From the IMG/VR virus record IMGVR_UViG_3300025835_000030, positions 1 to 28,814 of that record: a DNA stretch of 28,814 nt; one strand, given 5' to 3'. The stretch's first letter is position 1; every line of letters starts with the position of its first letter. The position numbers were made by a program, and so were the translations under genes. Of the stretch, positions 470-19,444 are shown piece after piece. Origin of the DNA: a virus. Its lineage: Duplodnaviria; Caudoviricetes. Below the pieces are notes generated by a model, which was not told where the DNA came from, ran no database searches, and was given only the letters and a program-made list of their open reading frames with translations.

Positions 470-471
470 AA

Positions 472-1555: not shown

Positions 1556-1559
1556 ATTA

Positions 1560-2036: not shown

Positions 2037-3052
2037 TATGCCGTTACTTTATCGCCAAATTGTACTTTACGCCTAAATCCGTTTTCGTCAAAATCAATAA
2101 CCTTTTCCTCTACATAATACAAACCGTTTCTATCCGGATACAGGTCACTTACTAAATCCACTTTATTGCCGTGATTAATAACCGGAATACCATACGCCGT
2201 AATAGACCCTGCAAAACCATCTATTTTAAATTTTTTTAAGTCTCTCTCTGCAGCTTTCGTCAGTTCCGCCTTAACTGTGATATTCATTGGATATTGTAAT
2301 TTTTTTTCAAGCCCGTATTTATCACCTACTTCAACTTGCAATTTATCACCGTAAGTTTGCATTGATATGGCAATAATTTTAATCAATACATCTTCTTTAT
2401 TCCTGTAATTCAAGTCATTGTTTACGACATTTTTCTCAAGATGCAACTTGATGGGTTTTAAATTAGGATTGTCTTTATAATACTTAGCATCATCTTGATA
2501 TATTTTACCACTTACAAGCTGTTTTCCTTTAAAATAACTATATAGTCCCAATTCATCTCTTAAATACTCAAGCGCTTCTGGAACTGTTTTGTTTGGAAAT
2601 ATTACATCTCCAATTTCAGTTCCTTCTAGAATATCCATATCATAACCAGGTAATATTTTTGTCAAAAGTCCTTTTAATGTAGCCTTTTCTAGGCTTATGT
2701 TAATTGATTTCTTTTTAAGTTGATACATTTCATCTTCACATTTAATCACAATCGGAATATCGGCTGATACCTCAGTAACATAACCCTCAAACTCTTTGTA
2801 AAATTGTCCATTATAGCCAAGCTCGATACATACTGGGTCGCCTTTTTTAAAGAATCTATTAACATCTTTTATAGATAATTTTATCTTTTGGTCATCAATA
2901 AAAATGACATTTCTAGGAATGGTAATTATAGCCGTATCGGTAAGTCGTTTCCAACTGCTTTCTATATGAACCGATGTTACTTTTTTAAGAACAATCTTAT
3001 TGTGACTTTTCGTTTTAGAAAACGTTATTTTTGCATTCATCGCTAGTACCAT
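2036..3052 (-). CDS. Baseplate hub protein (P2 gpD/Mu gp44-like)
   Basis: 338 aa; LTDTAIITIPR, GDPVCIELGYNG..EFEGYV, IKCED, GSITAYGIP..GNKV, G.YYVE motifs; synteny. Confidence 0.8.
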   Translation of the reverse strand: MVLAMNAKITFSKTKSHNKIVLKKVTSVHIESSWKRLTDTAIITIPRNVIFIDDQKIKLSIKDVNRFFKKGDPVCIELGYNGQFYKEFEGYVTEVSADIPIVIKCEDEMYQLKKKSINISLEKATLKGLLTKILPGYDMDILEGTEIGDVIFPNKTVPEALEYLRDELGLYSYFKGKQLVSGKIYQDDAKYYKDNPNLKPIKLHLEKNVVNNDLNYRNKEDVLIKIIAISMQTYGDKLQVEVGDKYGLEKKLQYPMNITVKAELTKAAERDLKKFKIDGFAGSITAYGIPVINHGNKVDLVSDLYPDRNGLYYVEEKVIDFDENGFRRKVQFGDKVTA

Positions 3053-3681
3053 TATTTTCTCAATTCTAAAGGTTCATCACTACTACATTTTAGATAAAAA
3101 GGAATCACATCGGGTTTGCCTTTTAACTGATTGATGTCTATTTCGTCAATCGTAATATTGTAAATTTTATGATTGTCAAATAGCTGACCTATAACTTGAA
3201 TAGCGTCTGCAATGCCCTCATAACTCAATAACTGTAATTTTTGTTCCTCAGCTGTTTTGGCCGTTGGATGGCTTGGATCTGGAAGGCATAAGCCACGAAT
3301 ATCAATAGACCAATCGTCAAAGCCATACATCTCTTTAACTGTTCCATTAGCTGCCAAAGCTTTTGTTTTAGTAATAATTTTGCCACGTCTAAAATTAACG
3401 AGTGTAGCCGATGGCAATTCAAAATCGGCAAAGGATTTTGGCACAACATCGCCAAGATCATTAAATATTTGATAGTCTTTTCCTTTAAATAACATTGACC
3501 CCAAAATAGGCGTTCCTAAATGACTCATACGCGATGCCTCGTGTACGTTATTCGCAATAGGAATGCCGCTGTAATCAAAATTTGTACCTGCAGGTGTTTG
3601 ATTTGTATTAATGTTATAGGCGGCAATGCTTCTGATACCAAAAGCAAGGTCAAACAATTGTGCAATGTTATAATTATTCAT
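3052..3681 (-). CDS. Tail tube initiator/baseplate protein (DUF6046-like)
   Basis: K.I.KT....NGTVKE....DDWSIDIRG and C-terminal CSSDEP; follows the tape measure gene. Confidence 0.65.
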   Translation of the reverse strand: MNNYNIAQLFDLAFGIRSIAAYNINTNQTPAGTNFDYSGIPIANNVHEASRMSHLGTPILGSMLFKGKDYQIFNDLGDVVPKSFADFELPSATLVNFRRGKIITKTKALAANGTVKEMYGFDDWSIDIRGLCLPDPSHPTAKTAEEQKLQLLSYEGIADAIQVIGQLFDNHKIYNITIDEIDINQLKGKPDVIPFYLKCSSDEPLELRK

Positions 3682-5684
3682 TAGCCTAGTGAAATAGCGG
3701 CATCCCGCAATTTGTCGTTAATTTTACCTACAATCTTATCGGCAAACTCATCAATGTTTCCTTTTAAGTGCCCGCCTGTGATATTAAAATAGTTTTTAAT
3801 GTCTAAATTCATCGTAATTGATTTTCCTGAACCGCCGCCTCCTGTTCCGGTTACACCCATATCACTACTTTTCGGTAAACTGCCAGTTGGTTTTACTTTT
3901 AAGCCACCAAAAGGGTCCGGCTCGTTTGGAGGTGGAATTATATTTCCGTCCTTATCATATTTAACTTTAATCTCAGCCTTTAAATCATCGCCAAAACCAA
4001 AGAATTTTTTAATATCTCCCCATACTTCTTTTATCTTATTCCAAAAACCGAGTACCAGACCTTTTACATATTCAAATACTTCTGAAACTTTTGCCTTGAA
4101 GCCAGGGAATATTATGTCAACTAAATCTATAATAAATTTAAAAGGACTGTGATTCCATACCCAAGTTGTAAAACTTATAATGGCATTTTTAATGTTGTCC
4201 CAATATTTTACCAATAAAACAATCGCGCCAATAGCTAATCCTATACCTATTACAATCGCACCGATTGGATTGGCATTCATAGCAATGTTTAAGCCCATTT
4301 GTGCGGCTGTGGCCGAAACCAAACCTACCACATACGATCCTAATCCTGTTAATGCTGTAAAAACAAAACTTCCGGCTGATTTTAAAGCATTCCAACCGGT
4401 TAAGACTACTGATTTACCAAACAAAAAGGCTTGCGTTCCTGCCCATTTAAAACCGCCGCCAATCATTTTTAAGCCTTTGCCTAATTTAGTATCCATTATC
4501 AAGGCAACACCTTGCTGTGCGCGTTTTAAATCGGCTAACACATCGATAGCTTCAAAGCCGCCATTAATAAATGGTAAAAAACTTTTAGAACCATTAAATA
4601 TTGAAATGCCGATGTCTTTAAAAAAGGCACTGTACCGGCTCATTTTTTCTGAATAGGTTGCCATAATGGTAGTAGCCTGTTCGGTAGCTACATTAGTGCC
4701 TGTAATTTTAGATAATAAGTCATCCTGTGCATCAACACTACGTGTTAAGATAGTAGCTCCTGCGGCGTTTTCAACACCAAATATTTGCGCAAATGCCGTA
4801 GCATCATTTTGCGCCTTACCTAGTTCTCGTAAACGGGTTGTAAATGGCAAAGATGTGTCAGATACAATCTTCATATTGACACCATAATGCTTAAGCTTTT
4901 TAAGTGCTTCAGCTGGTATCACATCTTCGCCCGCTATTTTATTTAAAACATTTCGCAAGGCCATACCACCTTCAGCCCCGGCTTTACCACCACGCGCCAA
5001 TTCTTGAATAGCGGCATTGGTTTCGGCAAACGATACTTTAGCTTGAGAAGCTGCAACACCCGACACTCTGATAGCTTGAGTGACTTCGGGTACTTCAGCA
5101 GAACCAAACTTAGCCCCCGCCGCCATCACATTCATTTGATTGCTCATTTCGGCAGCGGCTTTTATAGGGTCTGCAAGGTCAATTCTAAATTGCAGCATCG
5201 AAGTGGTTAACGCATCAACTGCGCCTTTTGTATCGCCTTTCATTGTTTTTGAAAGGGTCAACACGTTAGTATTCATACTATCAAGTGCCGGTTCGCTTTT
5301 AGCGATATCGGGGCCTAGTTTTGATAAGATAATTTTGTAGTTTTCGAGCGAATCTGAAGCATCGCCACCAAAGTTTTTAGCCGATTGGCGCGCCTTTAAT
5401 CCTAGACTGTCTAAAGCCTTTCCGGTAACGCCTGTAATAGCTTCTACATCTGCTAATCCGGATTGAAATTTAATGCCTGGCGCAACGGCTTCGTCAAGTC
5501 TATTTTTCAGACTTCTAAAGCCCTCGGCAATGGCACTGATATTAATTGCTGATGTATCTTTAAGTTGTTTGTTTAACACACCAGTCTTGCCGGAAATCGA
5601 TTTGATGTTTCCGTCAATATTTTTAAGCGGACTTGTAATATTGTCCACCAATTCTAATATCCACTTTGTGTTAAAACTTGACAT
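3681..5684 (-). CDS. Tail tape measure protein (TP901-family core)
   Basis: 667 aa, Ala/Gly-rich helical; FQSGLADVEAITG, MNANPIGAIVIGIGLAIGAIVLLVKYWD, Trp/Phe periodicity; downstream of the chaperone. Confidence 0.93.
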   Translation of the reverse strand: MSSFNTKWILELVDNITSPLKNIDGNIKSISGKTGVLNKQLKDTSAINISAIAEGFRSLKNRLDEAVAPGIKFQSGLADVEAITGVTGKALDSLGLKARQSAKNFGGDASDSLENYKIILSKLGPDIAKSEPALDSMNTNVLTLSKTMKGDTKGAVDALTTSMLQFRIDLADPIKAAAEMSNQMNVMAAGAKFGSAEVPEVTQAIRVSGVAASQAKVSFAETNAAIQELARGGKAGAEGGMALRNVLNKIAGEDVIPAEALKKLKHYGVNMKIVSDTSLPFTTRLRELGKAQNDATAFAQIFGVENAAGATILTRSVDAQDDLLSKITGTNVATEQATTIMATYSEKMSRYSAFFKDIGISIFNGSKSFLPFINGGFEAIDVLADLKRAQQGVALIMDTKLGKGLKMIGGGFKWAGTQAFLFGKSVVLTGWNALKSAGSFVFTALTGLGSYVVGLVSATAAQMGLNIAMNANPIGAIVIGIGLAIGAIVLLVKYWDNIKNAIISFTTWVWNHSPFKFIIDLVDIIFPGFKAKVSEVFEYVKGLVLGFWNKIKEVWGDIKKFFGFGDDLKAEIKVKYDKDGNIIPPPNEPDPFGGLKVKPTGSLPKSSDMGVTGTGGGGSGKSITMNLDIKNYFNITGGHLKGNIDEFADKIVGKINDKLRDAAISLG

Positions 5685-5695
5685 ATTCTAATTTT

Positions 5696-5731
5696 AAAAA
5701 AATAACGAGCCTTAATTTTAAGGCTCGTTAT
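5696..5731 (-). terminator. Intrinsic terminator between tail chaperone and tape measure
   Basis: Inverted repeat ATAACGAGCCTTAA-TT-TTAAGGCTCGTTAT (5702-5731) followed by a T-run on the minus strand. Confidence 0.75.
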
Positions 5732-5759
5732 CAACTAATATTAACTAATTCTCATTTAT

Positions 5760-5981
5760 TTAATTTGATTCAGTCCCGCCAAAGAGCCTCGCTAGCATTT
5801 CTGATTGTAACTTGATATCTAATCTTTTTAACCAAATCGCTTCTTGGTATAATTTAGCCCAAGCTTCTAAAGGCAACTGTTCCGGCTCGATTTTAAAAGC
5901 CTGCCTTATCAGCGCATTGCCTTTTAGATATTCATCATAGCCGTCATCGTCATTTATGGCAGCTTGGGCTATAACTTTTTT
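5760..5981 (-). CDS. -1 frameshift extension of the tail assembly chaperone (lambda gpGT-like)
   Basis: Slippery A AAA AAG at 5981-5975; the -1 frame is open for 71 codons (VIAQAAINDDDGYDEYLKGNALIRQAFKIEPEQLPLEAWAKLYQEAIWL...GGTESN) to TAA at 5762-5760. Confidence 0.85.
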   Translation of the reverse strand, partial: KKVIAQAAINDDDGYDEYLKGNALIRQAFKIEPEQLPLEAWAKLYQEAIWLKRLDIKLQSEMLARLFGGTESN

Positions 5982-6283
5982 CCTTCAGCTTCTATTACTT
6001 TAAATAATTTGCCAATGTACTGGATAACGCCAAGCACCATTTCAGAATCGTTCACTACGGCATCACTACCAGCAATTCTAGTCGAATTAAACATAATCAT
6101 ACCACTTTGAACCGGGTCACTTTCGGCATATTTTGCAGCTGCAGATATGATGTTTAAATCGGGTTTTTTTACATAGGTATAATGTACATCATCATCTCTA
6201 ACCGATTTAATTTCATAAACCTCGCTGTATTTTGCTTTAAGCGCAACAATCTCCTCTTTAGAGGCTTTGCCTATTTCTGCCAT
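5969..6283 (-). CDS. Tail assembly chaperone (gpG-like)
   Basis: Between tube and tape measure; ATG at 6283 overlaps the tube stop (TAATG); ends in a slippery site. Confidence 0.85.
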   Translation of the reverse strand: MAEIGKASKEEIVALKAKYSEVYEIKSVRDDDVHYTYVKKPDLNIISAAAKYAESDPVQSGMIMFNSTRIAGSDAVVNDSEMVLGVIQYIGKLFKVIEAEGKKL

Positions 6284-6708
6284 TATACGTTCCAATTAAT
6301 ATGTGAGCAATTCAAAGTATGATCAGTACTGATGGTTTTATCACCTTGTTTAACATCAATGCCGTTATTTTTAAATCGGCAGTTGTGAATGACGTCTTTG
6401 TAAACACGTCCTTGGTATTCGTAAGCTACCACAATTGGGAAAGCTGGAATATCTTGAATTCGCATACCTTTAGGCAATGAATCTTGAATAGCTAAACGCT
6501 CTTCAATGGTCAGTTCAATAGAGGCTTTGGCTTTATAGTTGCCTTCGCTTTCGCCAACAGGCATATCGCCGGCACCGTATTCGTTGTCAATCTCTTTTTC
6601 ATCGTCGTAAGCAATCTTTCGAATACCTACTACGTCTCTGCCAAATAAACGGCATGTCACCGAATTCCAACCGGCCATTTTACCAAATGCATTTATAATC
6701 GTTGTCAT
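6283..6708 (-). CDS. Tail tube protein
   Basis: 141 aa, beta-rich, YGAGDMPV...GNYKAKASIEL; directly after the sheath. Confidence 0.85.
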   Translation of the reverse strand: MTTIINAFGKMAGWNSVTCRLFGRDVVGIRKIAYDDEKEIDNEYGAGDMPVGESEGNYKAKASIELTIEERLAIQDSLPKGMRIQDIPAFPIVVAYEYQGRVYKDVIHNCRFKNNGIDVKQGDKTISTDHTLNCSHINWNV

Positions 6709-6710
6709 CT

Positions 6711-7928
6711 TTATTGTAATTTATTGGTTAAACCTAAGTCAAAACTCATCTCATGAATGATGTTGTTAAACACCAGTTCGCCTTTAATTTTTAAGGCGAC
6801 GTCGTTGGTAATATCCTGTTTAGGGTCAACGTAAACATCGCGTCCGCTAATCTCGCCTGCTGATGTCATTTGGTCAATGGCTTTTTCGGCCATTACCTCA
6901 AGTTCAGTAGCCTCAATATCTCTTATAAATCCCGTTGCCGGGTCTTTTAATAAATTCGATTTAACCCGAGGCAATAAGGCGATACGAACCAAATCGGCTG
7001 CCTTATCCCAAACACGGTTGTTCTCAATTCTTGAGTAATCGGATGTCTTAATTATACAAGTATGTGAGTCATTAAAATAGAAGCCTGGATAACCGTTATA
7101 GAATCCCACAAAAATGTAGGCTTTATCGTTAAGTGCTTGTATATCGGTATCCGATAGACTTGCCACATCTTTACCATCTTGTAAAACGGCTGTAAGCCAT
7201 CTTTGACGTGCCACATCGGTTAAAGAGTAATTTAAACTACCTTTAAAGGCACGTGGTTTTTGTTGGATATCTACCGAGCCAATATTCTCATTCACGCTTC
7301 GTACAGATATCGCTCCTAGAGCTGTGCCAATAGCCGCATAAGTGGCATAAGCCGCTTTTAAATTGCGAATTATTGGGTCTTGACCAATCACTATGGCTAC
7401 ATTTCCTGCAGCATAAGTTCGTGCATCTACATAAGCCGAAATTAAGGTAGCTAAGATAAACTCAGCACCCTCTACCAATACAGTTGAAATATTACGATTG
7501 GCGGTTCTTAACTCCGTTATCATTGTTTGATAATTGGCTATATAAACAGCCATATCTAATGGTGCTACCAAGTTATTTCTAACAAAACCAACGTTTTTAA
7601 TGGTTGGATTGGCTATTAACACCGCTTTGATTTCGGCCGTGGTTAACGTGTTGTCATCTAAAACCACAAATAAATTGCCGTTTGGTGACACGCGGAAAAA
7701 CTCATCAATATGATGATGCGCCAATATGCTATTGGTATCGTCATAAGATGGTGTGATGCCAAGAGCTTCAGCATCTTCAATGGCTAATAACTCAACTGCT
7801 GTTTTTAATGCCAATCCGGTTGCTGCTACAGCACCACCAATAACTAGCAAGCAAACGCCATCTTGAGCGGAATTTTTACGACCAAGACCGCCATTGAGTC
7901 TGTTTATATTTACACCGTTAAATCCCAT
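6711..7928 (-). CDS. Contractile tail sheath protein (DUF2586-like)
   Basis: 405 aa; LNDKAYIF...YPGFYFND, SDYSRIENNRVWDKA, VYVDPKQDI C-terminal sheath motifs. Confidence 0.88.
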   Translation of the reverse strand: MGFNGVNINRLNGGLGRKNSAQDGVCLLVIGGAVAATGLALKTAVELLAIEDAEALGITPSYDDTNSILAHHHIDEFFRVSPNGNLFVVLDDNTLTTAEIKAVLIANPTIKNVGFVRNNLVAPLDMAVYIANYQTMITELRTANRNISTVLVEGAEFILATLISAYVDARTYAAGNVAIVIGQDPIIRNLKAAYATYAAIGTALGAISVRSVNENIGSVDIQQKPRAFKGSLNYSLTDVARQRWLTAVLQDGKDVASLSDTDIQALNDKAYIFVGFYNGYPGFYFNDSHTCIIKTSDYSRIENNRVWDKAADLVRIALLPRVKSNLLKDPATGFIRDIEATELEVMAEKAIDQMTSAGEISGRDVYVDPKQDITNDVALKIKGELVFNNIIHEMSFDLGLTNKLQ

Positions 7929-8266
7929 TATGCTACAATTTCAGAATTAATAACAGTTTCTATCAACTTTACGCGCTCTCCATTATTTGGGGCGTTAGAA
8001 ATATCCACACCTTTTTCTTTGGCTACTGCTTCAAGTTCGGCTTTAGTCATTTTAGATAACGGCTTTGGTTCTGCAGCTACAATAAAGTCTTCTTTCTTAA
8101 TCGTAATGACTTCCATTTTCTTACCAGATACATTGGTATTAGCATGTAAATCGGCAGCGTTTTTATGAAAGAACATAAAACCGTCTGAAGTAAAAAATAC
8201 TTCGACTAAATTTTCGTCTTTTTTAAATTCTTTGTCAGCAATTGCTTGCAACTCTGTTTTTTTCAT
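7928..8266 (-). CDS. Hypothetical virion protein with C-terminal HeH/Rho-N-like helix pair
   Basis: LSKMTKAELEAVAKEKGVDI...ERVKLI pattern. Confidence 0.55.
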   Translation of the reverse strand: MKKTELQAIADKEFKKDENLVEVFFTSDGFMFFHKNAADLHANTNVSGKKMEVITIKKEDFIVAAEPKPLSKMTKAELEAVAKEKGVDISNAPNNGERVKLIETVINSEIVA

Positions 8267-8271
8267 GATAC

Positions 8272-8682
8272 TTAGTTTTTGTTTTTGTTTTTAAAAATAT
8301 CGGTTATTTGAGGGGCAACTTTTTCTACAGATCTACCGATGACATAACCGCCGATACCGAGTCTTAATAATTCCCAAAAATCGGGTTCTAAGACTGTATT
8401 TGGTAAATGAAAAGCCGGAGCAATAAATTTTGAGTACATCACAATAAAACCAAATGATAACATCAAAATTGGTCGCCAAGAGCGTTGTAACCAGTTGCCG
8501 GTTGCCTCAGCCATAATGATGTCTTTACCCATTTGCAAAAGCTCAAGGCTTTTGGCATTTATGATTTTTTCGAGCTCATTACGCGCTTGTAGTTTTTCTT
8601 CTTTTGAAGTAAATAGTTTATCCAAACCATTACCAATAGCATCTACTAACTCGCCTGTAAACCAATTTAAAATTTTGTTCAT
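8272..8682 (-). CDS. Holin, 3TM/GTA-type
   Basis: EA.GNWLQRSWRPIL, hydrophobic helices, GGYVIGRSVEK; adjacent to the lysin. Confidence 0.85.
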   Translation of the reverse strand: MNKILNWFTGELVDAIGNGLDKLFTSKEEKLQARNELEKIINAKSLELLQMGKDIIMAEATGNWLQRSWRPILMLSFGFIVMYSKFIAPAFHLPNTVLEPDFWELLRLGIGGYVIGRSVEKVAPQITDIFKNKNKN

Positions 8683-9101
8683 AATCTGCGATATTGAAGC
8701 AGTCTTTCTTTTGGGTAAGCTGCTATTTTCACTTCGTTACTTTGATTGCCGCCCAATACATATATAAAGTTATCGGTGGCTCTGATAAAAAAGGCAACAT
8801 GACCTTTCCAACTGTCTTTAGACTCGCGCCAAAAAATAACGACGTCGCCTATTATGGGTTCGTCCACATGATTGCCAACATTTAGCCAGCTTCTTGCGGT
8901 TAACTTATTACTTCTATCAACACCTGCTTGAATGGCTACCCAGTTAACAAAAGCCGAGCACCATGAAGTTTCGTCTTTTAGTTGTTTGCCATCAAGACCC
9001 ATCGCATCAAAATATTTTAGCACTTCAGGATTATCCTGAGATCCCTCAATTTCTTTGATGCCGTATTGGCTTAATGCGGTGTTAATTAGGTTTGTGTTCA
9101 T
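8679..9101 (-). CDS. Endolysin, TIGR02594/NlpC-P60(CHAP)-like peptidase
   Basis: DETSWCSAFVNW (catalytic Cys), ARSWL, GHVAFF (His), LGGNQSNEV. Confidence 0.9.
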   Translation of the reverse strand: MNTNLINTALSQYGIKEIEGSQDNPEVLKYFDAMGLDGKQLKDETSWCSAFVNWVAIQAGVDRSNKLTARSWLNVGNHVDEPIIGDVVIFWRESKDSWKGHVAFFIRATDNFIYVLGGNQSNEVKIAAYPKERLLQYRRL

Positions 9102-9117
9102 ATAGCTTATTCCCCAT

Positions 9118-9158
9118 AAGGGTGGAGCCTGCTTGTGTTAAGCAGTGCTCCCCTTTTT
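9118..9158. other. Intergenic stem-loop downstream of the capsid gene
   Basis: AAGGGTGGAGCCTGCTT...AAGCAGTGCTCCCCTT imperfect inverted repeat; T-run on the plus strand only. Confidence 0.55.
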
Positions 9159-9165
9159 ATAATTT

Positions 9166-10191
9166 TTATGCTGCAGTACCAGATACGATAGCACCTTGAC
9201 CTTTTAAGCTTGTAGGTATAGCAATAAAGTACAATCTAAAGCCAACAACGGTCTCTCTATTTTGAGGATCGGTATCGGCAGTTTTCATATATCTTGTCAC
9301 AGTACCTCTAGCTTTAGCAGTTCGTTGTGCTAAGAAGAATATAGAAGCATTCACACCAGGTGTAGCACTTCCAAAAGGAATTTTTGCCAAAGTGGTACCG
9401 TCATAAACAGGGCTATAAATATCTTCATAGATTTCAAAACTGTAATAGTTTTTTGCAATTGCTCCGGTTAGATGGTTTTGATATTGCACATTTAGAGCCT
9501 TATCTTCTAACAGTAAATCGGCTACGTGTTCAGGGCAAAGCACCAATACACGACCATTTAATGGAATTTTGAGCAAGTCTAAAGTCGATTTATAAGCAAT
9601 CAAATCGGCGCTAGTTAAACGTTTTCTTGTGCCGACACCACCTAAAGCAGCTCCAGTCGTTACTAAAATTGGCGTATCGGCTGTATTGGCAACTGGTGCT
9701 AAACTATGTAAGGCGTGTTCTTGAGTTCGTTCCTCTAAAGTCAAACGATGTTGTTCTTGCACACTGCCAACTTTATCATAAGGTAAAGCGTTTAGTTCGT
9801 CATCAGTTATTTTGGTATTGGTAGTATCATACTTAAATAAAGAAATTGCGGTACTGGTATCTGTACGTGAAGTTACAGCAATAGGGTATGTATTATTATC
9901 AATTAATACCGTTGGATCTGCACCAATTTCGTTAAGTTTAATGACGTCGTTGCCTACCCATTGGTTTTTACTGGGCACACGGTCTAGCCAAGTGCCTGCA
10001 TGGCGAAAATGTAATATCAATTCACGTTCAGCCAACTCGTTTTTGGCGACGGCGGCAAACGCCATACTTGGCGCGCCATTATTCAACACTTCTAAGCTGT
10101 TGGTAGCTAAATCGTGATTGTTGGTGCTAAATGCATATCCGGTAATACCGATAAACAAGAGTGCTAAAATAATTTTAAAGAGCTTTTTCAT
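9166..10191 (-). CDS. Major capsid protein, with a hydrophobic N-terminal leader
   Basis: 341 aa directly downstream of the protease/scaffold; IPLNGRVLVLCPEHVADLL and FEIYE resemble HK97-fold capsid segments. Confidence 0.8.
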   Translation of the reverse strand: MKKLFKIILALLFIGITGYAFSTNNHDLATNSLEVLNNGAPSMAFAAVAKNELAERELILHFRHAGTWLDRVPSKNQWVGNDVIKLNEIGADPTVLIDNNTYPIAVTSRTDTSTAISLFKYDTTNTKITDDELNALPYDKVGSVQEQHRLTLEERTQEHALHSLAPVANTADTPILVTTGAALGGVGTRKRLTSADLIAYKSTLDLLKIPLNGRVLVLCPEHVADLLLEDKALNVQYQNHLTGAIAKNYYSFEIYEDIYSPVYDGTTLAKIPFGSATPGVNASIFFLAQRTAKARGTVTRYMKTADTDPQNRETVVGFRLYFIAIPTSLKGQGAIVSGTAA

Positions 10192-10214
10192 AATTTCTAT
10201 TTTTCTATTTTTGA

Positions 10215-11333
10215 TTAGTTTTTTTTGTAATGCGCATCAATTAATTCTACTTGAACAGCAGCATCTAATTCTTCAAATGCTTTGGAGTCTTTTTCTTGAT
10301 AATCGGCATAAGTCCATTTATCACGACCTTCGGTTTCGCCTTTGGTACCGGGTTCAAAAATGTCAGAGATAGCTTTAATTGATGGCGCATCTTTTAAAAA
10401 TGCTTCTAAAGCTTCCAGTTCCATAGCCTCTAAATGAGGGCGTTGTTTTGCGGTAATTTTTTTAGCTACTTCAGCAGCATCTAAAACCGTTTTTTTCTTT
10501 GCTGCCACATCAACTTTAGCCTTATCGGCGGCGGCTTGTACAAGAGCATCGCTCTGCGTGGCTTTGGTTTTAAGCTCAGCTAACTTGGCGTTGACTTGAG
10601 CTTGAGTTGCGTCAGATGGTAGTCCAATCATAACGGCTAATACAGGTAATTCCATAGTTTTATTTTTGTTTTGATTATTCTCAATTTTTGGGATATTTGG
10701 TGCGCCACAGGCAACTAATTGCAAGCGACTTTCGGCATTAATAGGTTCATCGGTAGGTTCAATTGCATCAATCAGTCCTTTTTTAAGGGCTTCTTGAGCA
10801 GTCATCCAATAATCGCCTTTCATCCAAAGGTTTTCAATTTCTTGTTCAGTAATACCCATTTTAGAGGCATAAGCCGATTTGTAATCCTGAGTCATATTTT
10901 GGATTAATTTCAAACCTGCAGCTATCTCATCTTCATTCCCCGATGGATTGCCCATTGGTTTATGAATCATAAATTGGCTGTTTCGTTTGGCTGTACTGTG
11001 CCATTGGGTTAAAAAGTAGGTTCCAGCCGATGCGGCTACGGCTCCAACTTTTACGGTAACATCAGTAAAATTGTCTTTAACAAGGTTTACAATTTCGTTA
11101 GCCTCAAAGCAATCGCCACCTGGTGTGTTAATATATAGTTCGGCTTTGGTTATGCCGTCCTTTTTAAAACCCTTAATAGCTGCTTCAATATCAACACTAG
11201 AGGCCGTATTCCATCGATAGATAGAACCTTTTATACCGAGATAAGCAATTTTATCTTTAACAACAGCCGTTATCTCAAGCGGTGTGCGTTTATTTTCGGC
11301 ATAGGCCATAATTGTAAATGATGGTTTTTTCAT
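10215..11333 (-). CDS. ClpP-like (S14) head maturation protease with C-terminal scaffold
   Basis: LYINTPGGD, GAVAASAGT (Ser), FMIHKP (His), DYWMTAQEALKKGLIDAI; Ala/Lys-rich C-terminus; start placed at 11333 (or 11309) rather than 11519. Confidence 0.9.
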   Translation of the reverse strand: MKKPSFTIMAYAENKRTPLEITAVVKDKIAYLGIKGSIYRWNTASSVDIEAAIKGFKKDGITKAELYINTPGGDCFEANEIVNLVKDNFTDVTVKVGAVAASAGTYFLTQWHSTAKRNSQFMIHKPMGNPSGNEDEIAAGLKLIQNMTQDYKSAYASKMGITEQEIENLWMKGDYWMTAQEALKKGLIDAIEPTDEPINAESRLQLVACGAPNIPKIENNQNKNKTMELPVLAVMIGLPSDATQAQVNAKLAELKTKATQSDALVQAAADKAKVDVAAKKKTVLDAAEVAKKITAKQRPHLEAMELEALEAFLKDAPSIKAISDIFEPGTKGETEGRDKWTYADYQEKDSKAFEELDAAVQVELIDAHYKKN

Positions 11334-11343
11334 ATTCAAAAGG

Positions 11344-11495
11344 CAAAATTGCATGATGCTTTCTATAAATGAAAATTTCAATCCCATGATGGTAAGCATA
11401 CGTCCCATGATGGTAAGCATACGCCCCATGATGGTAAGCATACGTCCCATGATGGTACAAGAATTTAGAAATTGAAACCATTTATTACAATTTTG
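11344..11495. promoter_or_regulatory. Divergent late promoter region: two CAATTTTG -7-like elements (11351-11344 minus; 11488-11495 plus)
   Basis: Each is one mismatch from Bacteroidota TAnnTTTG, lies 10-12 nt before an ATG and 32 bp from the nearest repeat core. Confidence 0.6.
11382..11457. repeat. 21-bp tandem repeat, 3.6 copies, YCCCATGATGGTAAGCATACG
   Basis: Units at 11382, 11403, 11424 and 11445 (partial); core CCATgATGG is an interrupted palindrome. Confidence 0.97.
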
Positions 11496-11507
11496 TACCA
11501 TTATATT

Positions 11508-12002
11508 ATGGCTAAACAAAACGAACGCAGACTGGCAAAAGAATTGCTACTGCAAGGGAATAATCAAAAAGAAATTGCCCGGATGGTTAAAGTTCAAGAA
11601 AAGACCATCAGTCAATGGGTTAAAAAATATGGGTGGAACGAAGAGCGTGATGCACGGTTTAACAGTGCCAATACTCAAATTTTGAGTTTAAAAAAACTCA
11701 TCGGCCGTTTAACCGAACAACGCTTAACACTTATCCGAAAAATGGAAACTGCAATAGCTAATGATAACCTTGAGGAACATGATGCATTGCAATACAAAGC
11801 CAATCGTTTAGCTGATGAAGTCTCTAAATACAATAAAGCTTTGTTGTCTATTGACAAAGAAAATAAAATCTCTTTGTCGGTTTACCTCGATGTTATGGAT
11901 AGCATCTTTAAAGCCGTTCAAGTTTACAGTCCTGCATTGTATATGTCGCTACTTGACTTTCAAGAGCAACACCTTAGTGATATCAGTTTAAAAATTGGAT
12001 AA
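11508..12002 (+). CDS. Terminase small subunit (N-terminal HTH)
   Basis: AKELLLQGNNQKEIARMVKVQEKTISQWVKKYGW HTH then coiled coil; upstream of terL; ATG at 11508 preferred. Confidence 0.75.
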   Translation: MAKQNERRLAKELLLQGNNQKEIARMVKVQEKTISQWVKKYGWNEERDARFNSANTQILSLKKLIGRLTEQRLTLIRKMETAIANDNLEEHDALQYKANRLADEVSKYNKALLSIDKENKISLSVYLDVMDSIFKAVQVYSPALYMSLLDFQEQHLSDISLKIG

Positions 12003-12319
12003 TGAGTAACAGAAAAAAAATACCGTTTAAACAGCGTTTAAATGCTTGGTTAGACTTTAGAAAAAAGATGTTTCAGCTTTGGTGGTACGATGCACCGGCA
12101 TATCAAAAAAATTTAGAAAAAGGCATTTATTATTTGCGAAAAGGTGCCGTGTATCAGGTAGGGCAACCTTTTACTGTAATTGAACCAATTACCAAGCGTA
12201 GGCGATTTCGTTACATCAGCAACCTGTTCTACAATTTTAAGCTAAATAAAGTCACGCATTCTTTTTCGCGCCAACCTATTGAGGGTCATTCCGAATTTTT
12301 TACCAAACCAAAAAAATAA
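12002..12319 (+). CDS. Hypothetical basic protein between the terminase subunits
   Basis: 105 aa, translationally coupled (TAATG). Confidence 0.55.
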   Translation: MSNRKKIPFKQRLNAWLDFRKKMFQLWWYDAPAYQKNLEKGIYYLRKGAVYQVGQPFTVIEPITKRRRFRYISNLFYNFKLNKVTHSFSRQPIEGHSEFFTKPKK

Positions 12320-12321
12320 CA

Positions 12322-13839
12322 TTGAAACAACAGGATAAAATAGCGCTGCAAAGGTACCAGGACAAAATTAAACTCATCCGTAGTTCGGGAGGAGTCATTA
12401 ATCCCGATGAAACCAAAGCCGATAAATTGGCGCGTATTGAACGTGCCAAAAAAGATGTGCGCTTTATGGTTCAGTACTACTTCCCACACTATGCTACTTC
12501 AGAGAGCGCCAACTTTCAAATTGAGTTTGCCAATATGGTTAAAAAGAATCCAACCTTTAAAGGCTTTTGTGAATGGGGTCGCGCGCTTTCAAAATCTGTT
12601 TGGAATGATATTATAATCCCTTTTTGGCTGTGGATAAATGGAGAACCAGTATATTTAGTTCTAATTGGAAACTCCCAAAAAAGAGCACAACAATTATTGG
12701 AAGATATTAAAGCTGAGTTTGAGGGAAATCCTAGAATAATTGGCGATTTTGGAGAGCAACAAAACCAAGGCTCTTGGGAAGATGGGTTTTTTATTACAAG
12801 AGGTGGGTTTATAGGTCAGGCTTTGGGAACAGGACAAAGTGTAAGAGGCTTACGTGTAGGTAGTAAACGACCAACTCACATTGTGCCAGATGATATTGAA
12901 ATTAAGGACACAATTAAAAACCCTAAACGTCAAATGGAAATTGTGAAGTGGATTGAAGGCGATTTAATCCCTACAATGGACGGAGATATTCGGCGGTTTA
13001 TTCAGGCGAATAATAAAGCCTATCCGGTAATGATTCAAACACTTTTACAGGAGCGCCACCCCACGTGGAAAATCCATGGTATTAAGGCCTACAACCCTGT
13101 AACCTATGAGCCAACATGGTATCAAAAATATGATAGCGAGTATTATAAAAATATTGAATCTGATATTGGCCGATTAGCTGCTTTGGCTGAGTACAATAAT
13201 GAGCCACATATTGAAGGAAGTATCTTTTTAGAGGAACACATTCAATGGGCAGAATTACCTAAATTAAACCACTTTAAAATTATCATAGGTCATTGGGATG
13301 TTGCTTTTGCAGGTTCTGCTACTTCCGATTTTAACGCCGTTAAAGTTTGGGGTTTAAAAAACGCCGACTTCTTTTTAATAGATAGTTTTGTTAAGCGCAG
13401 TAAAATGCGCGCGCCTATTGTTTGGATGTGCCAATTTCAAAAAACGCTACCCGAAACCGTCATCATTCATTGGCGGTTTGAAGCGCAATTTTGGAATGAT
13501 GAGATCGAGAGAACCATAGCTGAAGTAGAAGCTGAATTCGGCATTAAACTCAATATTATTAAAGTTAATATACCAAAGGTTAAAAAGTTTGATCGGATGT
13601 TAACAATGCATCCATACTATCAAAATGGACGTATTTATTACAACCTTAAAAAGAAGAGTCATAACGATACTTTGGTGGGCATCTCTCAGTTATTGGGCTT
13701 AGAACCCGGTTATAGAACCAATGATGATTCTCCAGATTCCGATGAACAATGTATCACCGAATTAAGTAAATATATATACAGTTCGCGCGGGGCTACAAAG
13801 CCCGTAACGGGCAGATATCAACGACCACAAAGTTTTTAA
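12322..13839 (+). CDS. Terminase large subunit
   Basis: Walker A-like WGRALSKS, GQSVRGLRVGSKRPTHIVPDDIE (Walker B), nuclease motifs GHWDVAF, SDFNAV, DDSPD; TTG start. Confidence 0.88.
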   Translation: MKQQDKIALQRYQDKIKLIRSSGGVINPDETKADKLARIERAKKDVRFMVQYYFPHYATSESANFQIEFANMVKKNPTFKGFCEWGRALSKSVWNDIIIPFWLWINGEPVYLVLIGNSQKRAQQLLEDIKAEFEGNPRIIGDFGEQQNQGSWEDGFFITRGGFIGQALGTGQSVRGLRVGSKRPTHIVPDDIEIKDTIKNPKRQMEIVKWIEGDLIPTMDGDIRRFIQANNKAYPVMIQTLLQERHPTWKIHGIKAYNPVTYEPTWYQKYDSEYYKNIESDIGRLAALAEYNNEPHIEGSIFLEEHIQWAELPKLNHFKIIIGHWDVAFAGSATSDFNAVKVWGLKNADFFLIDSFVKRSKMRAPIVWMCQFQKTLPETVIIHWRFEAQFWNDEIERTIAEVEAEFGIKLNIIKVNIPKVKKFDRMLTMHPYYQNGRIYYNLKKKSHNDTLVGISQLLGLEPGYRTNDDSPDSDEQCITELSKYIYSSRGATKPVTGRYQRPQSF

Positions 13840-13841
13840 TT

Positions 13842-14273
13842 ATGGCATATAAATTTTTAATTGCAGCAGATCTACAGGCACATATAATCGACCAGTTTTT
13901 GACTGAGCGTAGCGCAGAACCACAAACCGCAATACTAGAGACTTTAGAAGCTCAAAATATTGAAATTATCAAAGCTAAGCTTAAGGGTAGATTTGATGTG
14001 GTCGCCATTTTTAATACTACCGGTGCAGACCGACATTATTTGATTATTAAAATATTAGTCAAATTAGTATTGTACGACTTCATCCGCCGTAATGCATCGC
14101 GTAAAGTACCTACCGATTATGTAAATGAATGGGAATGGGCAATGAAATTACTTGAGCAAATAAAAGCCGGTAAAGAAGTGCCTGATGGTTTGCCAATTCC
14201 GTTAGATGCCAATGGCGATTCCACCGTGTCATTAATGTACGGCAATAACAAAAATACTGATTATTACATCTAA
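13842..14273 (+). CDS. Head-tail adaptor, Mu gp36/DUF1320-like
   Basis: L.GRFDV..IF, LVLYDF, AMKLLEQIKAGK..PDGLP pattern; between terL and portal. Confidence 0.75.
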   Translation: MAYKFLIAADLQAHIIDQFLTERSAEPQTAILETLEAQNIEIIKAKLKGRFDVVAIFNTTGADRHYLIIKILVKLVLYDFIRRNASRKVPTDYVNEWEWAMKLLEQIKAGKEVPDGLPIPLDANGDSTVSLMYGNNKNTDYYI

Positions 14274-14278
14274 ATATT

Positions 14279-15562
14279 ATGAGCAAAAGTTTTATAGATA
14301 AAGTTACCGATAGACTTCTAGGTTTTGTGCCAGACGGTCGCATAAAAGTTGAGGCTGCCAACCGTAGCGAAAACAAAGGCAAAGTTATTAGTGGCGAGAT
14401 TAAGCGCGCCTCAACCTTGTTTCAGGCTAAGACTTTAAAAGATTGGAAAAGTGCCATCGCATTGGCAACTGATTTTGATAACCAAAGTTTTTTGTTATTG
14501 GCTGAGCTCTACAATAATTTATTGTTAGATAGTCATACCGTTTCGGTTATTGAAAGCCGTATATATCGAGTATTACGCTCAAAATTTGTATTGGTAAATC
14601 AAGCTGGAGATGAAGTACCCGAAGTAAAAGCATTATTTGAGCGGCCTTGGTTTGAAGGCTTTTTAAAAGAGATTTTAATGTCAAAATTTACAGGCGTAAA
14701 AGTGATAGAAATTTTCCACGTAGACGAAATGTTAGAATTGGTTAAGACCCTAGCGATTCCGATGGAACACACCAACACTAAAAAGGGACTTATTTTAAAA
14801 CTTCCGGGTGATGCAGATGGTTGGGATTACCGTTCTGTTGTTTTAGAAAATTATTACTTGCAAATCGGCGAGAATACCGATTTAGGAATGTTGGCTACCA
14901 TTGCACCACTTATCCTGGCTAAAAAATTAGCAATGGGTAGTTGGTTAGACTTTATCGAAAAATTCGGTATTCCACCGCGATACGTAACAACTGATAATAT
15001 GACATTAACACGTCAAAATGAGTTGCTAGAAATGATGTTAGCTATGGTAAATAACCATGTTGCGGTTATTCAGGGTTCTGAAAAAATTGAAATAGCAAAC
15101 ACGCCCAATACCGATGCCTATAAAGTGTTTGACGAAATGATTTTAAGGATTAACTCCGAAATTTCTAAGCGTATTTTAGGCCAAGATGGTACTAGTGATA
15201 ATAAAGACGCTTCCGGAACTTATGGCAGTTTAAAAGTGTTGCAAGGTGTGGCTAATGACCGTCACGAAAGCGATAAACTTTTCGCACAATACATCATTAA
15301 TAAAGAGCTGATACCAAGATTGGTTAATTTGAGCAGTTTTTATGCGCCACTCGCTGATTTAAAATTTGACTGGGATGAGAGCGAGGAAATGGAAAAAGGT
15401 GCGTTAATTGACAAAGCCGTGGCATTGGCAGGCGCAGGTTTTGAATTGGATTATGAGATATTGGCAAATAAAAGCGGTATGCCTATTATTGGATTCAACA
15501 ATAGCAATGCTACAATTCCGATTGACACATTAAAAAAAAAAAGCCTGAAACAAACGCCATAG
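14279..15562 (+). CDS. Portal protein, Mu gp29/DUF935-like
   Basis: LLDSH..SVIESR, WLDFIEKFGIP, NSEISKRILGQ, INKELIPRLV motifs. Confidence 0.92.
   Translation: MSKSFIDKVTDRLLGFVPDGRIKVEAANRSENKGKVISGEIKRASTLFQAKTLKDWKSAIALATDFDNQSFLLLAELYNNLLLDSHTVSVIESRIYRVLRSKFVLVNQAGDEVPEVKALFERPWFEGFLKEILMSKFTGVKVIEIFHVDEMLELVKTLAIPMEHTNTKKGLILKLPGDADGWDYRSVVLENYYLQIGENTDLGMLATIAPLILAKKLAMGSWLDFIEKFGIPPRYVTTDNMTLTRQNELLEMMLAMVNNHVAVIQGSEKIEIANTPNTDAYKVFDEMILRINSEISKRILGQDGTSDNKDASGTYGSLKVLQGVANDRHESDKLFAQYIINKELIPRLVNLSSFYAPLADLKFDWDESEEMEKGALIDKAVALAGAGFELDYEILANKSGMPIIGFNNSNATIPIDTLKKKSLKQTP
15532..15543 (+). other. A11G slippery run; candidate -1 frameshift/slippage site joining portal to MuF
   Basis: 11 consecutive A (15532-15542); the -1 frame is open from 15526 into ORF 15679..16791. 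Confidence 0.7.
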
Positions 15563-15678
15563 CCATAGCTTCGTTATTTAGCAGAATTAATGCACTTTAT
15601 CATGATGATGGATGCAAATGTACTAGTTGTGTACATAATGAAGTTGTAGCCGTTGATATTGAAAGCTGGATTAAATTA

Positions 15679-16791
15679 ATGGAACGTATCGCAAAAGATA
15701 CTTACGATGGCAAACTAAAGCGCGGTGACTTAGATTCTGCACATATTCAAAAAACTTATGACGAGCTGACTAATGCTGCAATCGACGGTGATAAAAATTG
15801 GCTTAAAGTAGCCAAAAGTACCGGAGCACCAAGTTTAACTTCTTTAAAAATGCAACAAAACCTATATTGGTTCTCTGGTGCTAAAGATTATACTATGCTT
15901 ACCGATTTAAATACAAGATTAGTTAAAGACGGTAAAATTCAGAATTGGAGTGCATTTAAAAAACAAGCCTTAGAACTAAATAAGACTTATAATGAAAATT
16001 ATTTAAAACGGGAGTGGAAAACTTCAAAACAATCTGCACTAATGGCTCAAAACTGGAGTGAATATGTTAGAAATCAAGATACATACAAAAATTTAAAATA
16101 CAAGACACAAGAAGATAATTTAGTAAGAGAAGCACATGTGCTTTTGAACAATATCATAAAACCTGTTAATGATCCTTGGTGGAAAACACATTACCCACCT
16201 AATGGTTATGGACCTTGTAGATGTTACGTCATTCAGACAAATGAAGCTGCAACCTCTGAACAGGATACGCCAATACTAAATAATAAAGATTTCCCTCCTG
16301 AATTTAGAACTAATGTCGGTGAAACCGGACAAACTTTTAAAGAGTCTACTGCCAATGGCGGTAAACCACATCCTTTTATTCAATTAGCAAAAGATACACC
16401 CGGTGTTGAAAAGAACGTCAACAAGCTATTTTTTAAATTAAATCAAACAAGGGCTGTGAAAATATTAGTTGATAAAACTACGAAGCATAGTGAACTTAGT
16501 AATGAAATAACATTCAATGCTACTTCTATTAGACACGCTTTTAATCAGCCACATAAAAATTATGCCATAAAGAATCAAATTTTACCTTTTATAAATACCG
16601 TAATTACAAAAGCCGAATATTTAGGATTTTCTACATATAAAAAAAATGATGCTTTTTCTGGTGCACACATTTTTAAAACAATTATAAACGATGACGAATC
16701 CTATATAATTGTAAGAGAAACTTGGGGTGGAAAACTTATTTTTTACAGTATTTCTGACAGCAAAAAGGTGGCTATTGATGCAAAAAAATAA
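15679..16791 (+). CDS. MuF (Mu gp30/SPP1 gp7-like) minor head protein with C-terminal extension, possibly a BECR-fold (LPD3/PBECR-like) RNase
   Basis: YKTQEDNLVREAH...DPWWKTHYPPNGYGPCRCYV MuF signature; last ~110 aa EITFNATSIRHAF...IIVRETWGGKLIFYSISD; frame open upstream to 15526. Confidence 0.85.
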   Translation: MERIAKDTYDGKLKRGDLDSAHIQKTYDELTNAAIDGDKNWLKVAKSTGAPSLTSLKMQQNLYWFSGAKDYTMLTDLNTRLVKDGKIQNWSAFKKQALELNKTYNENYLKREWKTSKQSALMAQNWSEYVRNQDTYKNLKYKTQEDNLVREAHVLLNNIIKPVNDPWWKTHYPPNGYGPCRCYVIQTNEAATSEQDTPILNNKDFPPEFRTNVGETGQTFKESTANGGKPHPFIQLAKDTPGVEKNVNKLFFKLNQTRAVKILVDKTTKHSELSNEITFNATSIRHAFNQPHKNYAIKNQILPFINTVITKAEYLGFSTYKKNDAFSGAHIFKTIINDDESYIIVRETWGGKLIFYSISDSKKVAIDAKK

Positions 16792-16847
16792 CCAATTAAG
16801 CCGATACCACCAAATCTACAATTTGGCGCCGTTCTTAATTGGTTACT
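16782..16847 (-). ncRNA. Predicted ~65-nt small RNA with a tRNA-Tyr(GUA) anticodon-stem-loop-like apex
   Basis: TATCTTTG promoter directly upstream, 12-bp perfect closing stem, U7 tail, apical CCAAA-UUGUAGA-UUUGG; 5' end estimated. Confidence 0.55.
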
Positions 16848-16851
16848 CATG

Positions 16852-16859
16852 CAAAGATA
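16852..16859 (-). promoter_or_regulatory. Bacteroidota sigma70 -7 element TATCTTTG, antisense to the late operon
   Basis: Exact TAnnTTTG in an AT-rich intergenic gap; no clear -33 TTTG. Confidence 0.6.
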
Positions 16860-16886
16860 AAAATTAATTTTAATTATAACTTATAA

Positions 16887-17420
16887 ATGGAAAAGAAATT
16901 TGAATCTCCCAATTTTAGAAAAATAGCCGAAAAAGTTTTGGCTGGCTTGCCTGATGACATTGGAAAAGAGGCTAGAGCATTTTTTTTAAAGAGTTTTATT
17001 AAAGAGGGTTTCACCGATATTTCATTTATTGCCTGGCCCAAACGCCAAGATACATTAACACAAAAATTATTAAGTCAAAGTTTACAATTGCGCAATAGCA
17101 TAAAAGTAGAACGTGCCGATATGCGCCAAGTAGTTGTAAGTGCAGGCGAAGGGTTACCTTATGCCGAAATACACAATAATGGCGGTACCATTTTAGTTAG
17201 TGTAACTCCTAAAATGCGTAAATTTTTCTGGTTTATGTTTAAAAAAACAGGCAATATAAAATACAAATGGATGGCACTTACCAAAAAAGAGCAATTATCC
17301 ATTCACATACCACAACGGCAATTTATAGGCGAAAGTTTTACGCTTGATAAAAAAATTGATGCACTTGCCATTGCGCGCATTATCAAAGAACAAAAGAATT
17401 TAAACTTTAAAACAATATAA
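16887..17420 (+). CDS. Virion morphogenesis/tail completion protein (Mu gpG/P2 gpS-like)
   Basis: F..EGF....WP.R, L..S.QLRNSI, PYAEIHNNGG, IPQRQFIG. Confidence 0.85.
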   Translation: MEKKFESPNFRKIAEKVLAGLPDDIGKEARAFFLKSFIKEGFTDISFIAWPKRQDTLTQKLLSQSLQLRNSIKVERADMRQVVVSAGEGLPYAEIHNNGGTILVSVTPKMRKFFWFMFKKTGNIKYKWMALTKKEQLSIHIPQRQFIGESFTLDKKIDALAIARIIKEQKNLNFKTI

Positions 17421-17422
17421 CT

Positions 17423-17962
17423 ATGGAATTACAAGGTTGGGACAAACTGTATCAAGAACTGGCAAAAAAATTAACCGATAATATTCCGGCTATCAACTGG
17501 GCGGATTTATGGCATAACCAAGTAGGTTTTTTGGTTGAGGAACATCCGTTCCCTACGCCCGCCGTTTTTTTAGCCTTCAGGATTTTGGATAGTGAAGATA
17601 TGGGCGAAAAAACACAAAAACTAAACTTACAAGTTGATGTGTATTATTTTTATGAAACCTTTTTAGATACCTATCAAAGCGCCTATAACGAAGCTGACGC
17701 TTTAAATTACTTAAGTACCATTACAGATATCTATAAAGCATTACACGGCACCAGCGGGGCTAATTATGCCGAAATGCGGCGCATTGGCTTTAGTTCGGTT
17801 GACACAGGTTCTGCAGGTAACGTTTATCTGCAAAGTTTTGTGTGTAATGTAATTGATGCAACGGCGGCCGTAAATTATAATGAGGCAAGCCCAGGTGCTA
17901 TAAATTATATTGAAGGTAGTGCGCCAGCTATACCTGCAACGCCACTTTATCAAATACCTTAA
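17423..17962 (+). CDS. Tail terminator/neck protein (Mu gp37-like)
   Basis: WADLWHNQV..L.EEHPFPTPAVFL; follows the gpG-like gene. Confidence 0.6.
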   Translation: MELQGWDKLYQELAKKLTDNIPAINWADLWHNQVGFLVEEHPFPTPAVFLAFRILDSEDMGEKTQKLNLQVDVYYFYETFLDTYQSAYNEADALNYLSTITDIYKALHGTSGANYAEMRRIGFSSVDTGSAGNVYLQSFVCNVIDATAAVNYNEASPGAINYIEGSAPAIPATPLYQIP

Positions 17963-19407: not shown

Positions 19408-19444
19408 CAAACATACAAAAAATATTTTTTAATTACTATCTTTG
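19408..19444. promoter_or_regulatory. Back-to-back -7 elements: TATGTTTG (19415-19408, minus, antirepressor leader) and TATCTTTG (19437-19444, plus, moron)
   Basis: Exact TAnnTTTG matches positioned upstream of the respective units. Confidence 0.65.

Follow-up and report, generated by a model that had tools for sequence, protein, structure and literature searches.

The described systems closest to the locus analysed here are the MuF polymorphic toxins, which – according to the accessible part of PMC5576092 – likewise join a MuF N-terminus to a variable, toxin-like tail, lie in the head module of temperate phages and have orphan tail cassettes, as does one of the loci discussed below. A protein immunity factor is regarded as necessary for polymorphic toxins, and RNA antitoxins that bind proteins have come from a few type III families. 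BECR domains that are virion-associated and fused to MuF (the PBECR and MuF-C families) are also treated in PMC5512222, where Mu's own copy is termed inactive; in its accessible sections LPD3 appears with no fold assigned, a partner RNA does not come up, mRNA or crRNA are favoured as targets of phage BECR domains, and these domains are thought possibly to spare tRNA because the phage needs it. Colicin-like BECR members mostly cleave tRNA, according to the available portion of 10.64898/2026.08.28.747851, a portion that mentions neither LPD3 nor a non-coding RNA. Colicin D, colicin E5, CdiA-CT and YxiD resemble the LPD3 domain in predicted fold, with a His and a Lys near the first helix and a Ser on the last strand, yet colicin-like BECR tRNases all have protein immunity factors and share 7–17% identity with LPD3.

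In type III toxin–antitoxin (TA) systems, such as ToxIN, an RNase-type toxin is neutralised by a small structured RNA, which is encoded as a repeat array upstream of the toxin gene and co-transcribed with it, the toxin being ToxN, CptN, TenpN or AbiF. AbiF–RCd22, as presented in the accessible part of 10.1101/2025.04.15.648962, pairs a toxin of the RNase type with a neighbouring small structured RNA, often on prophages, and the RNA neutralises the toxin through direct binding – which we propose, by analogy, for the present locus. The locus differs from type III systems in that the candidate toxin is of the LPD3/BECR type, in that the RNA lies downstream, is convergent, has a promoter motif of its own and is mostly present in single copy, and in that the RNA appears to copy the presumed substrate; Pfam, PADLOC and Rfam gave no match of the ToxN/CptN/TenpN/AbiF type. 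Type I TA systems have small hydrophobic toxins and an RNA whose sequence is constrained only by pairing, whereas here a 120-aa domain, modelled as alpha/beta, stands opposite an RNA with a conserved loop; the type I layout itself – a convergent RNA antisense to the toxin mRNA and overlapping it – is present. Phage T5 offers a further parallel, since its uncleavable tRNA-Lys variant counters the tRNase of PARIS (PMC11464382, accessible part); that molecule is a full decoding tRNA which replaces the host's and acts against a host enzyme, whereas the LPD3 RNA consists of a single arm and is linked to a domain that the phage itself encodes. A 48-nt candidate RNA upstream of LPD3 genes in Bacteroides phages, DNAVirus_4052, appears in the accessible part of PMC10690425, and the RNA described below may already figure there as an unnamed candidate. 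No description of an LPD3 domain paired with a tRNA-mimic RNA was found in the literature searched (largely papers outside subscription), and Rfam has no family for it.

Sequence comparison leads us to regard as probable, on balance, that the locus represents a conserved gene pair, in which a predicted LPD3 tRNase is accompanied by a substrate-mimic RNA antitoxin in the place of an immunity protein.

The muF gene, its LPD3 tail and the predicted RNA behind it

The window – the whole 28.8-kb stretch of virus record IMGVR_UViG_3300025835_000030 from IMG/VR – comes from a Mu-like transposable phage: it has transposase and MuB-like genes, and the genes for portal, MuF and a G-like protein follow one another. 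Almost all named relatives of the unit belong to Bacteroidota. Its terminase–portal–MuF genes (11472–17962, plus strand) are transcribed divergently from the protease–capsid–tail genes (2–11519, minus strand), the prohead protease being of ClpP type. A gap of 116 nt (15563–15678) separates portal and muF, and muF has an upstream in-frame extension lacking an ATG (stop-to-stop frame, 421 aa).

The muF product belongs to PHROG 220 (minor head protein) and matches Pfam Phage_Mu_F at aa 90–185 (E 6.9e-9), so that a MuF domain and a variable C-terminal effector lie within a phage head module, as in MuF polymorphic toxins; in contrast to these, no immunity protein is encoded directly downstream. As the initial annotation had noted, no immunity-type ORF follows muF on the plus strand of the window, and the spot expected for an immunity gene is occupied, after a gap of 95 nt, by a structural gene (Table 1). 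PADLOC returned no match for either of the two proteins tested.

Table 1. Positions of the protein-coding and RNA features discussed (window numbering)
Feature	Position	Strand	Remarks
muF gene	15679..16791	+	370 aa; MuF head domain and C-terminal LPD3 domain
LPD3 domain	16429..16788	+	aa 251-370; predicted (model) colicin-like BECR RNase
R/K-x3-NQPH-x5-KN motif	16531..16575	+	aa 285-299; likely active-site helix, by analogy
Predicted small RNA, ~65 nt	16782..16846	-	Long irregular hairpin with terminal U tract; predicted ends
U7 tail	16782..16788	-	A run on + strand codes the protein's last lysines
Outer stem, 12 bp	16845-16834 / 16800-16789	-	From sequence
Anticodon-arm mimic CCAAA-UUGUAGA-UUUGG	16810..16826	-	GUA at 16819-16817
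Apical stem	16826-16822 / 16814-16810	-	Up to 7 pairs possible; loop UUGUAGA at 16821-16815
Putative Bacteroidota -7 element TATCTTTG	16852..16859	-	Promoter-like by sequence and positional conservation
Next gene	16887..17420	+	Mu G-like tail completion/Neck1 protein; Pfam Phage_tail_S, PHROG 26

Coordinates and letters of the minus-strand unit proposed for this gap – promoter, stems, loop and U7 – all proved correct when checked against the sequence. The U7 tail adjoins or overlaps the muF stop codon (16789–16791). The hairpin folds with z = −5.4, none of 200 shuffles being equally stable, and the minus strand is stabler than the plus strand; the terminator scan built into the analysis of the window did not list it. 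ViennaRNA shrinks the loop in the window to three bases, and the seven-nucleotide anticodon loop that had been claimed thus stands by the family alignment and not by the fold of the window itself. The hairpin matches no Rfam family, RF00005 included, and neither do the RNAs of 20 LPD3 loci; ARAGORN found no tRNA in the window, the LPD3 RNA having no cloverleaf with acceptor, D and T arms. Rfam hits to sRNA-Xcc1 (L140) and RT-3 (L180) lie 500–700 nt away from the elements and were set aside as unrelated.

The consensus of the Bacteroidota −7 promoter element is TAnnTTTG. This pattern occurs in the window at chance level (44 matches, 47 expected), and TATCTTTG itself recurs four more times, at 19437, 24319, 27689 and 28633, which leaves the earlier statement that this promoter is more consensus-like than those of the late operons unsupported. 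The motif was therefore rejected as evidence when taken alone, and has weight only through its positional conservation in homologues; with that conservation, given below, the small-RNA gene is likely to be transcribed.

The identification of the MuF tail as LPD3 is firm: Pfam LPD3 (PF18798) matches aa 261–349 with E 4.4e-12 and 46.6 bits, against a curated cut-off of 27, and atlas and viral fold searches concur. HMMER found 289 relatives at 50% clustering, of which the best 150 were aligned with five closer ones (155 rows). Within this set the domain is nearly always C-terminal, ending within 10 residues of the protein end in 147 of 154, and the kept residues are K-E-x2-NQPH-x5-KN, H330, E347 and (Y/H)-S-I-S-D, with H292, K298, N299, H330, E347, S357 and D360 as conserved positions (H292 in 135/155, K298 in 153/155, E at 286 in 141/155); the window reads RH where most relatives show KE. 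By analogy with the BECR pattern given in the accessible part of PMC5512222, the helix bearing the NQPH motif is likely to have a catalytic role. Colicin-like BECR RNases have a single pocket built from a His at the first helix and a Ser or Thr on the last strand, for which the conserved H292, K298, S357 and D360 would be candidates here.

A predicted model of the domain (from 50 sequences; pLDDT 96) consists of elements H31-39, H45-61, E63-69, E76-86, E89-98 and E103-109, that is, it contains the helix and following four-stranded meander of the BECR topology. Foldseek found no match to the model in the PDB at E <= 0.001, and in a wide structural search 12 of the 13 best rows were BECR toxins (Z 5.6–4.0): Serratia CdiA-CT 5.6, BrnT 5.5, RelE 4.9, colicin D 4.8, Klebsiella CdiA-CT 4.8, YxiD 4.7 and the sequence-specific RNase domain 3ao9 4.6, with an rmsd of 3.8 over 92 aligned residues for the best row (Z 5.6). 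Every single score is modest; it is because the list of matches is consistent that the fold can be called BECR-like, as had been supposed for this tail. A common fold by itself shows no function, and the domain would be an RNase by prediction; colicin E5-type and colicin D-type cuts are indistinguishable here, the Z values being tied.

Conservation, linkage and joint movement of RNA and domain

As the deep protein alignment held no stretch conserved enough for a locus search, a back-translated motif was used, which picks one LPD3 subfamily and found at least 120 viral loci and 100 genome loci. From 234 motif records, 9 that were cut off, 12 under 50 bits and 3 with less than 70 nt downstream were left out, and the 210 kept fell into 127 clusters at 80% identity, the viral part comprising the matches listed; all cluster counts below refer to this listed set.

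A YUG(C/U)ANN loop closed by three pairs lies on the opposite strand, within 50 nt of the stop codon, in 104 of the 127 clusters. Loop and closing pairs were the selection rule, so it is the independent tests that matter. The pairs 28:42 and 27:43, which were not selected for, form in 66/73 and 64/73 rows of the main (SIxD) clade, with six to seven pair types; an alignment of 88 RNAs gives 87.3% pairing and 67 compensatory cells for the five-pair stem, a result reached in none of 500 shuffles (although relatedness inflates it), and all slid stem registers are worse than the chosen one. Folding z lies below −2 in 114/127 clusters, as against 2/18 tail-less MuF genes, and the minus strand is the stabler one in 119/127 (490 G–U pairs versus 165). 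Antisense TAnnTTTG occurs 35–125 nt beyond the stop in 92/107 clusters, compared with 8/107 upstream, 5/102 downstream and 3/107 on the other strand in control windows. The conserved loop, covarying stem and antisense promoter motif that the initial annotation looked for in homologues are therefore all there, and the hairpin behind muF is a real element and not a plain terminator.

Other parts of the locus are held less strictly. The outer stems, unlike the loop, are poorly conserved (39% mean column identity). Of the 23 clusters without the strict loop, the promoter motif is retained in 16, and many show GGA-loop-UCC with variant loops of 5 or 7 nt; most have a variant loop on a similar hairpin. 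Loops of 5 or 8 nt or other anticodons occur in some clusters, and L263 and L271 have the hairpin but a protein frame that reads through it. Close to the window, an 80% relative (L377) keeps the loop and has a compensatory C–G to U–A change in the outer stem, a 65% relative (L011) has a different stem and the loop UUGUAUC, and 50% relatives have CUGUAGU. A lysine stands among the last five residues of the LPD3 protein in 117/127 clusters. In 101 clusters, the first ATG ORF of at least 60 aa starts within 50 nt of the stop in only 5 and mostly lies at 75–125 nt, where it is of the G type. A second strict RNA copy is found in 4/104 clusters; tandem copies were seen in L023, L024, L258, L275 and L289, L024 having one GUA and one GCA copy.

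The linkage holds in both directions. A reverse search by the RNA (loop plus promoter) gave at least 121 loci with 78 distinct matches, and LPD3 lies directly upstream in 70 of the 78 listed; five of the other eight are chance matches that form no hairpin, and three are true hairpins with short or tandem flanks. Conversely, none of 18 tail-less MuF genes with enough flank is followed by the RNA unit or by its promoter motif (eight of them AT-rich), their next gene being close by (median z 0.1). On the protein tree, a branch of 36 rows (SH-aLRT 97) has solely GCA in the 24 of 24 scored, and SIV[ED] rows have A38 in the RNA and mostly a U–U internal loop; RNA shape appears to track protein clade, one split carrying this link.

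The pair is also found away from complete muF genes. On the minus strand of L027, a MuF-LPD3 gene with a GCA RNA comes first; after it stand a piece of gene G, then an orphan LPD3 whose RNA has GUA, then a third tail fragment with its own hairpins and finally gene G again. Every cassette has an RNA to itself, and the layout is that of orphan toxin–immunity cassettes, with the RNA standing in the immunity place; the repeated gene G fragments suggest cassette swapping at the muF 3′ end. Among clusters with short frames, 12/27 have a promoter motif of their own and an ATG, and such modules lie between housekeeping genes in L305, L332, L278 and L333. As read from these genomes, the arrangements show that domain and RNA travel jointly.

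Stand-alone LPD3–RNA modules with their own promoter motif were observed on chromosomes of Prevotella and other Bacteroidales (L305, L326, L333, L292, L275, L262, L332 and L278).

Relation to host tRNAs, and an analogue in the MuF_C family

The loops of the 104 clusters have U32 in 99, C35 in 64 and U35 in 40, U38 in 75 and A38 in 26, and at position 37 G in 78, U in 18, A in 4 and C in 4. Their anticodon-like triplet is GCA in 64 and GUA in 40, so that mimicry of tRNA-Tyr only, as initially annotated, was rejected. Arms of 34 anticodon types were taken from five host genomes (Tyr GCAGA-CUGUAAA-UCUGC; Cys GCGGU-CUGCAAA-ACCGU; His CUUGA-UUGUGGU-UCAAG). No host tRNA in the five matches the mimic exactly; the arm in the window is nearest to tRNA-Tyr (11/17), and mean identity over 17 nt is no higher to Cys than to Leu, Phe or His, neither Tyr nor Cys being singled out. 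The RNA consensus is a hybrid of a Tyr/Cys anticodon, a His-like loop context and a generic GGA/UCC stem. The RNA of L319 has 20 consecutive bases in common with E. coli tRNA-Cys. A likeness of the loop to helix 42 of 16S rRNA was rejected, as the host copies differ and the context is another.

All seven distinct Tyr and Cys arms of the hosts have A37, whereas the mimic is non-A37 in 100/104 clusters, a departure that may protect it from cleavage and that would also rule out modification by MiaA. GUA and GCA have been exchanged at least 17 times (5 of them forced) on the protein tree, which was built by a quick method from few columns, and within the main clade the anticodon does not follow protein lineage. 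Since the two swap so often outside the GCA-only branch, position 35 is probably read merely as a pyrimidine.

A different RNA accompanies a different tail. MuF_C tails that contain an H-x2-S-x-K-H segment are followed, on the opposite strand, by a cloverleaf that has D and T loops and lacks an anticodon; it exceeds the Rfam tRNA cut-off in 6 of 7 segment-bearing loci (31–46 bits); ARAGORN called none of four a tRNA. In Mu and SfMu the histidine segment and the gap are missing and gene G overlaps gene F, the cloverleaf too being absent from both – in line with the inactive Mu domain reported in the accessible part of PMC5512222. A search by the D loop of this RNA gave 21 distinct matches, 7 of them chance and 14 cloverleafs, and all 14 cloverleafs lie opposite a segment-bearing MuF_C domain. 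The MuF_C loci are related to each other, so that these observations amount to about one independent loss.

Anticodon-less cloverleafs on the minus strand, with a −10-like element, were noted in L567, L568, L570–L579 and L580–L601, and further ones in L140, L162, L175 and L208; scoring as tRNA in Rfam, they may be mis-annotated.

A proposed mode of action, competing readings and other MuF tails

In the mechanism that we propose, the LPD3 domain would be an active RNase reading anticodon arms with G34-Y35-A36, those of tRNA-Tyr and tRNA-Cys; tRNA-His, with the same U32/G37/U38 loop context, would be a second candidate. A host-type promoter of its own would drive synthesis of the RNA in the lysogen as well as in the producing cell. 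The RNA would bind the nuclease by mimicking its substrate but stay uncut, thereby acting as antitoxin, and would escape cleavage because its position 37, unlike that of the host Tyr and Cys tRNAs, is not A. Through MuF the domain would be packaged in the head and would reach the infected cell; translation would be slowed in naive cells, whereas lysogens containing the RNA would be protected; stand-alone copies would act as TA modules. A substrate-mimic antitoxin is the simplest account because of the two-way linkage, the immunity slot, the joint movement and the likeness to tRNA with a fixed departure from it, and because in the MuF_C family the RNA is lost together with the catalytic segment.

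Among other accounts, control of the type I kind, in which the RNA would pair with the 3′ end of the muF mRNA and the muF–G junction and lower toxin expression, its tRNA look being secondary, is unlikely. It fits the convergent, fully complementary layout that overlaps the stop codon in muF and likewise in stand-alone modules, and convergent 3′ overlap is common in type I systems; however, any sequence would do for pairing with its own opposite strand, whereas 104 of the 127 listed clusters keep the loop, though not the outer stems, and the MuF_C family retains a full cloverleaf, and antisense pairing could give no protection against an injected protein.

A decoy function of the RNA, directed at anticodon nucleases of the host, with LPD3 as binding partner, carrier or bystander and not as toxin, is in our view rather improbable. 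Anticodon geometry, a separate promoter motif and non-A37 would all suit such a role, phage tRNA variants do beat PARIS (PMC11464382, accessible part), and catalysis by LPD3 is a prediction; a decoy, however, would have no need to sit behind LPD3 in 70 of 78 listed matches, to be missing behind all 18 tail-less MuF genes or to be lost with the histidine segment in Mu. Of the two functions offered in the initial annotation, antitoxin or decoy, the former thus fits better, since the linkage between RNA and domain holds both ways and the two move together, and since the MuF_C analogue disappears where the histidine segment is lost.

Improbable to a greater degree is an RNA that serves LPD3 as substrate or cofactor, its cleavage or binding activating the enzyme or setting free a regulatory fragment. 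A strictly one-to-one linkage and an RNA shape specific to the clade would fit any cognate protein–RNA pair, but inhibition agrees better with the immunity slot, the orphan cassettes that repeat the toxin–immunity layout and the systematic departure from host tRNA at position 37. A terminator behind muF, plain or bidirectional, would explain the stable hairpin and its U tract and is very improbable, given that the U tract is on the antisense strand, muF is mid-operon, loop sequence and upstream promoter motif are conserved and tail-less MuF genes have no such hairpin.

If the substrate-mimic antitoxin is accepted for LPD3, a wider class can be entertained as a serious, still tentative, possibility: phages would deliver tRNases in their heads and guard against them, in place of immunity proteins, with RNAs that imitate the portion of the tRNA recognised by the enzyme in question – for LPD3 the anticodon arm, for MuF_C a cloverleaf lacking the anticodon and for CdiA_C-type tails perhaps an acceptor-stem helix. 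The neighbouring RNA would then reveal the enzyme's target, and its shape, which differs by domain family, would directly predict each nuclease's substrate. Widespread substrate-mimic RNAs in the immunity slot would join polymorphic toxins and RNA antitoxins, and would give a function to the LPD3, PBECR and MuF-C domains, which have been annotated since 2017 with neither a target nor a partner assigned; the LPD3 system is small (120 aa and 65 nt) and common in phages and genomes of Bacteroidota.

PBECR2 and CdiA_C tails, too, tend to be followed by gaps with folded RNA, some of which end in NCCA before a separate terminator. A clean contrast between RNase and non-RNase tails of MuF was not obtained: z <= −2 was found for 16/28 RNase-type and 2/5 other tails, and an ORF of at least 40 aa starts near the stop in 9/28 and 3/5. 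The contrast being weak, these RNAs are a lead only. Six CdiA_C-type or similar tails (L176, L196, L185, L163, L160 and L186) have a short helix and then a separate terminator, the helix ending in NCCA in three of them, possibly as acceptor-stem mimics. Behind six PBECR2 tails (L150, L158, L144, L190, L204 and L155), gaps of 80–230 nt hold other folded RNAs on the opposite strand. Distant LPD3-like tails with the promoter motif and hairpins with other loops are found in L152, L205, L180, L211, L138 and L181, the loop in L152 being UUGUUAC (GUU).
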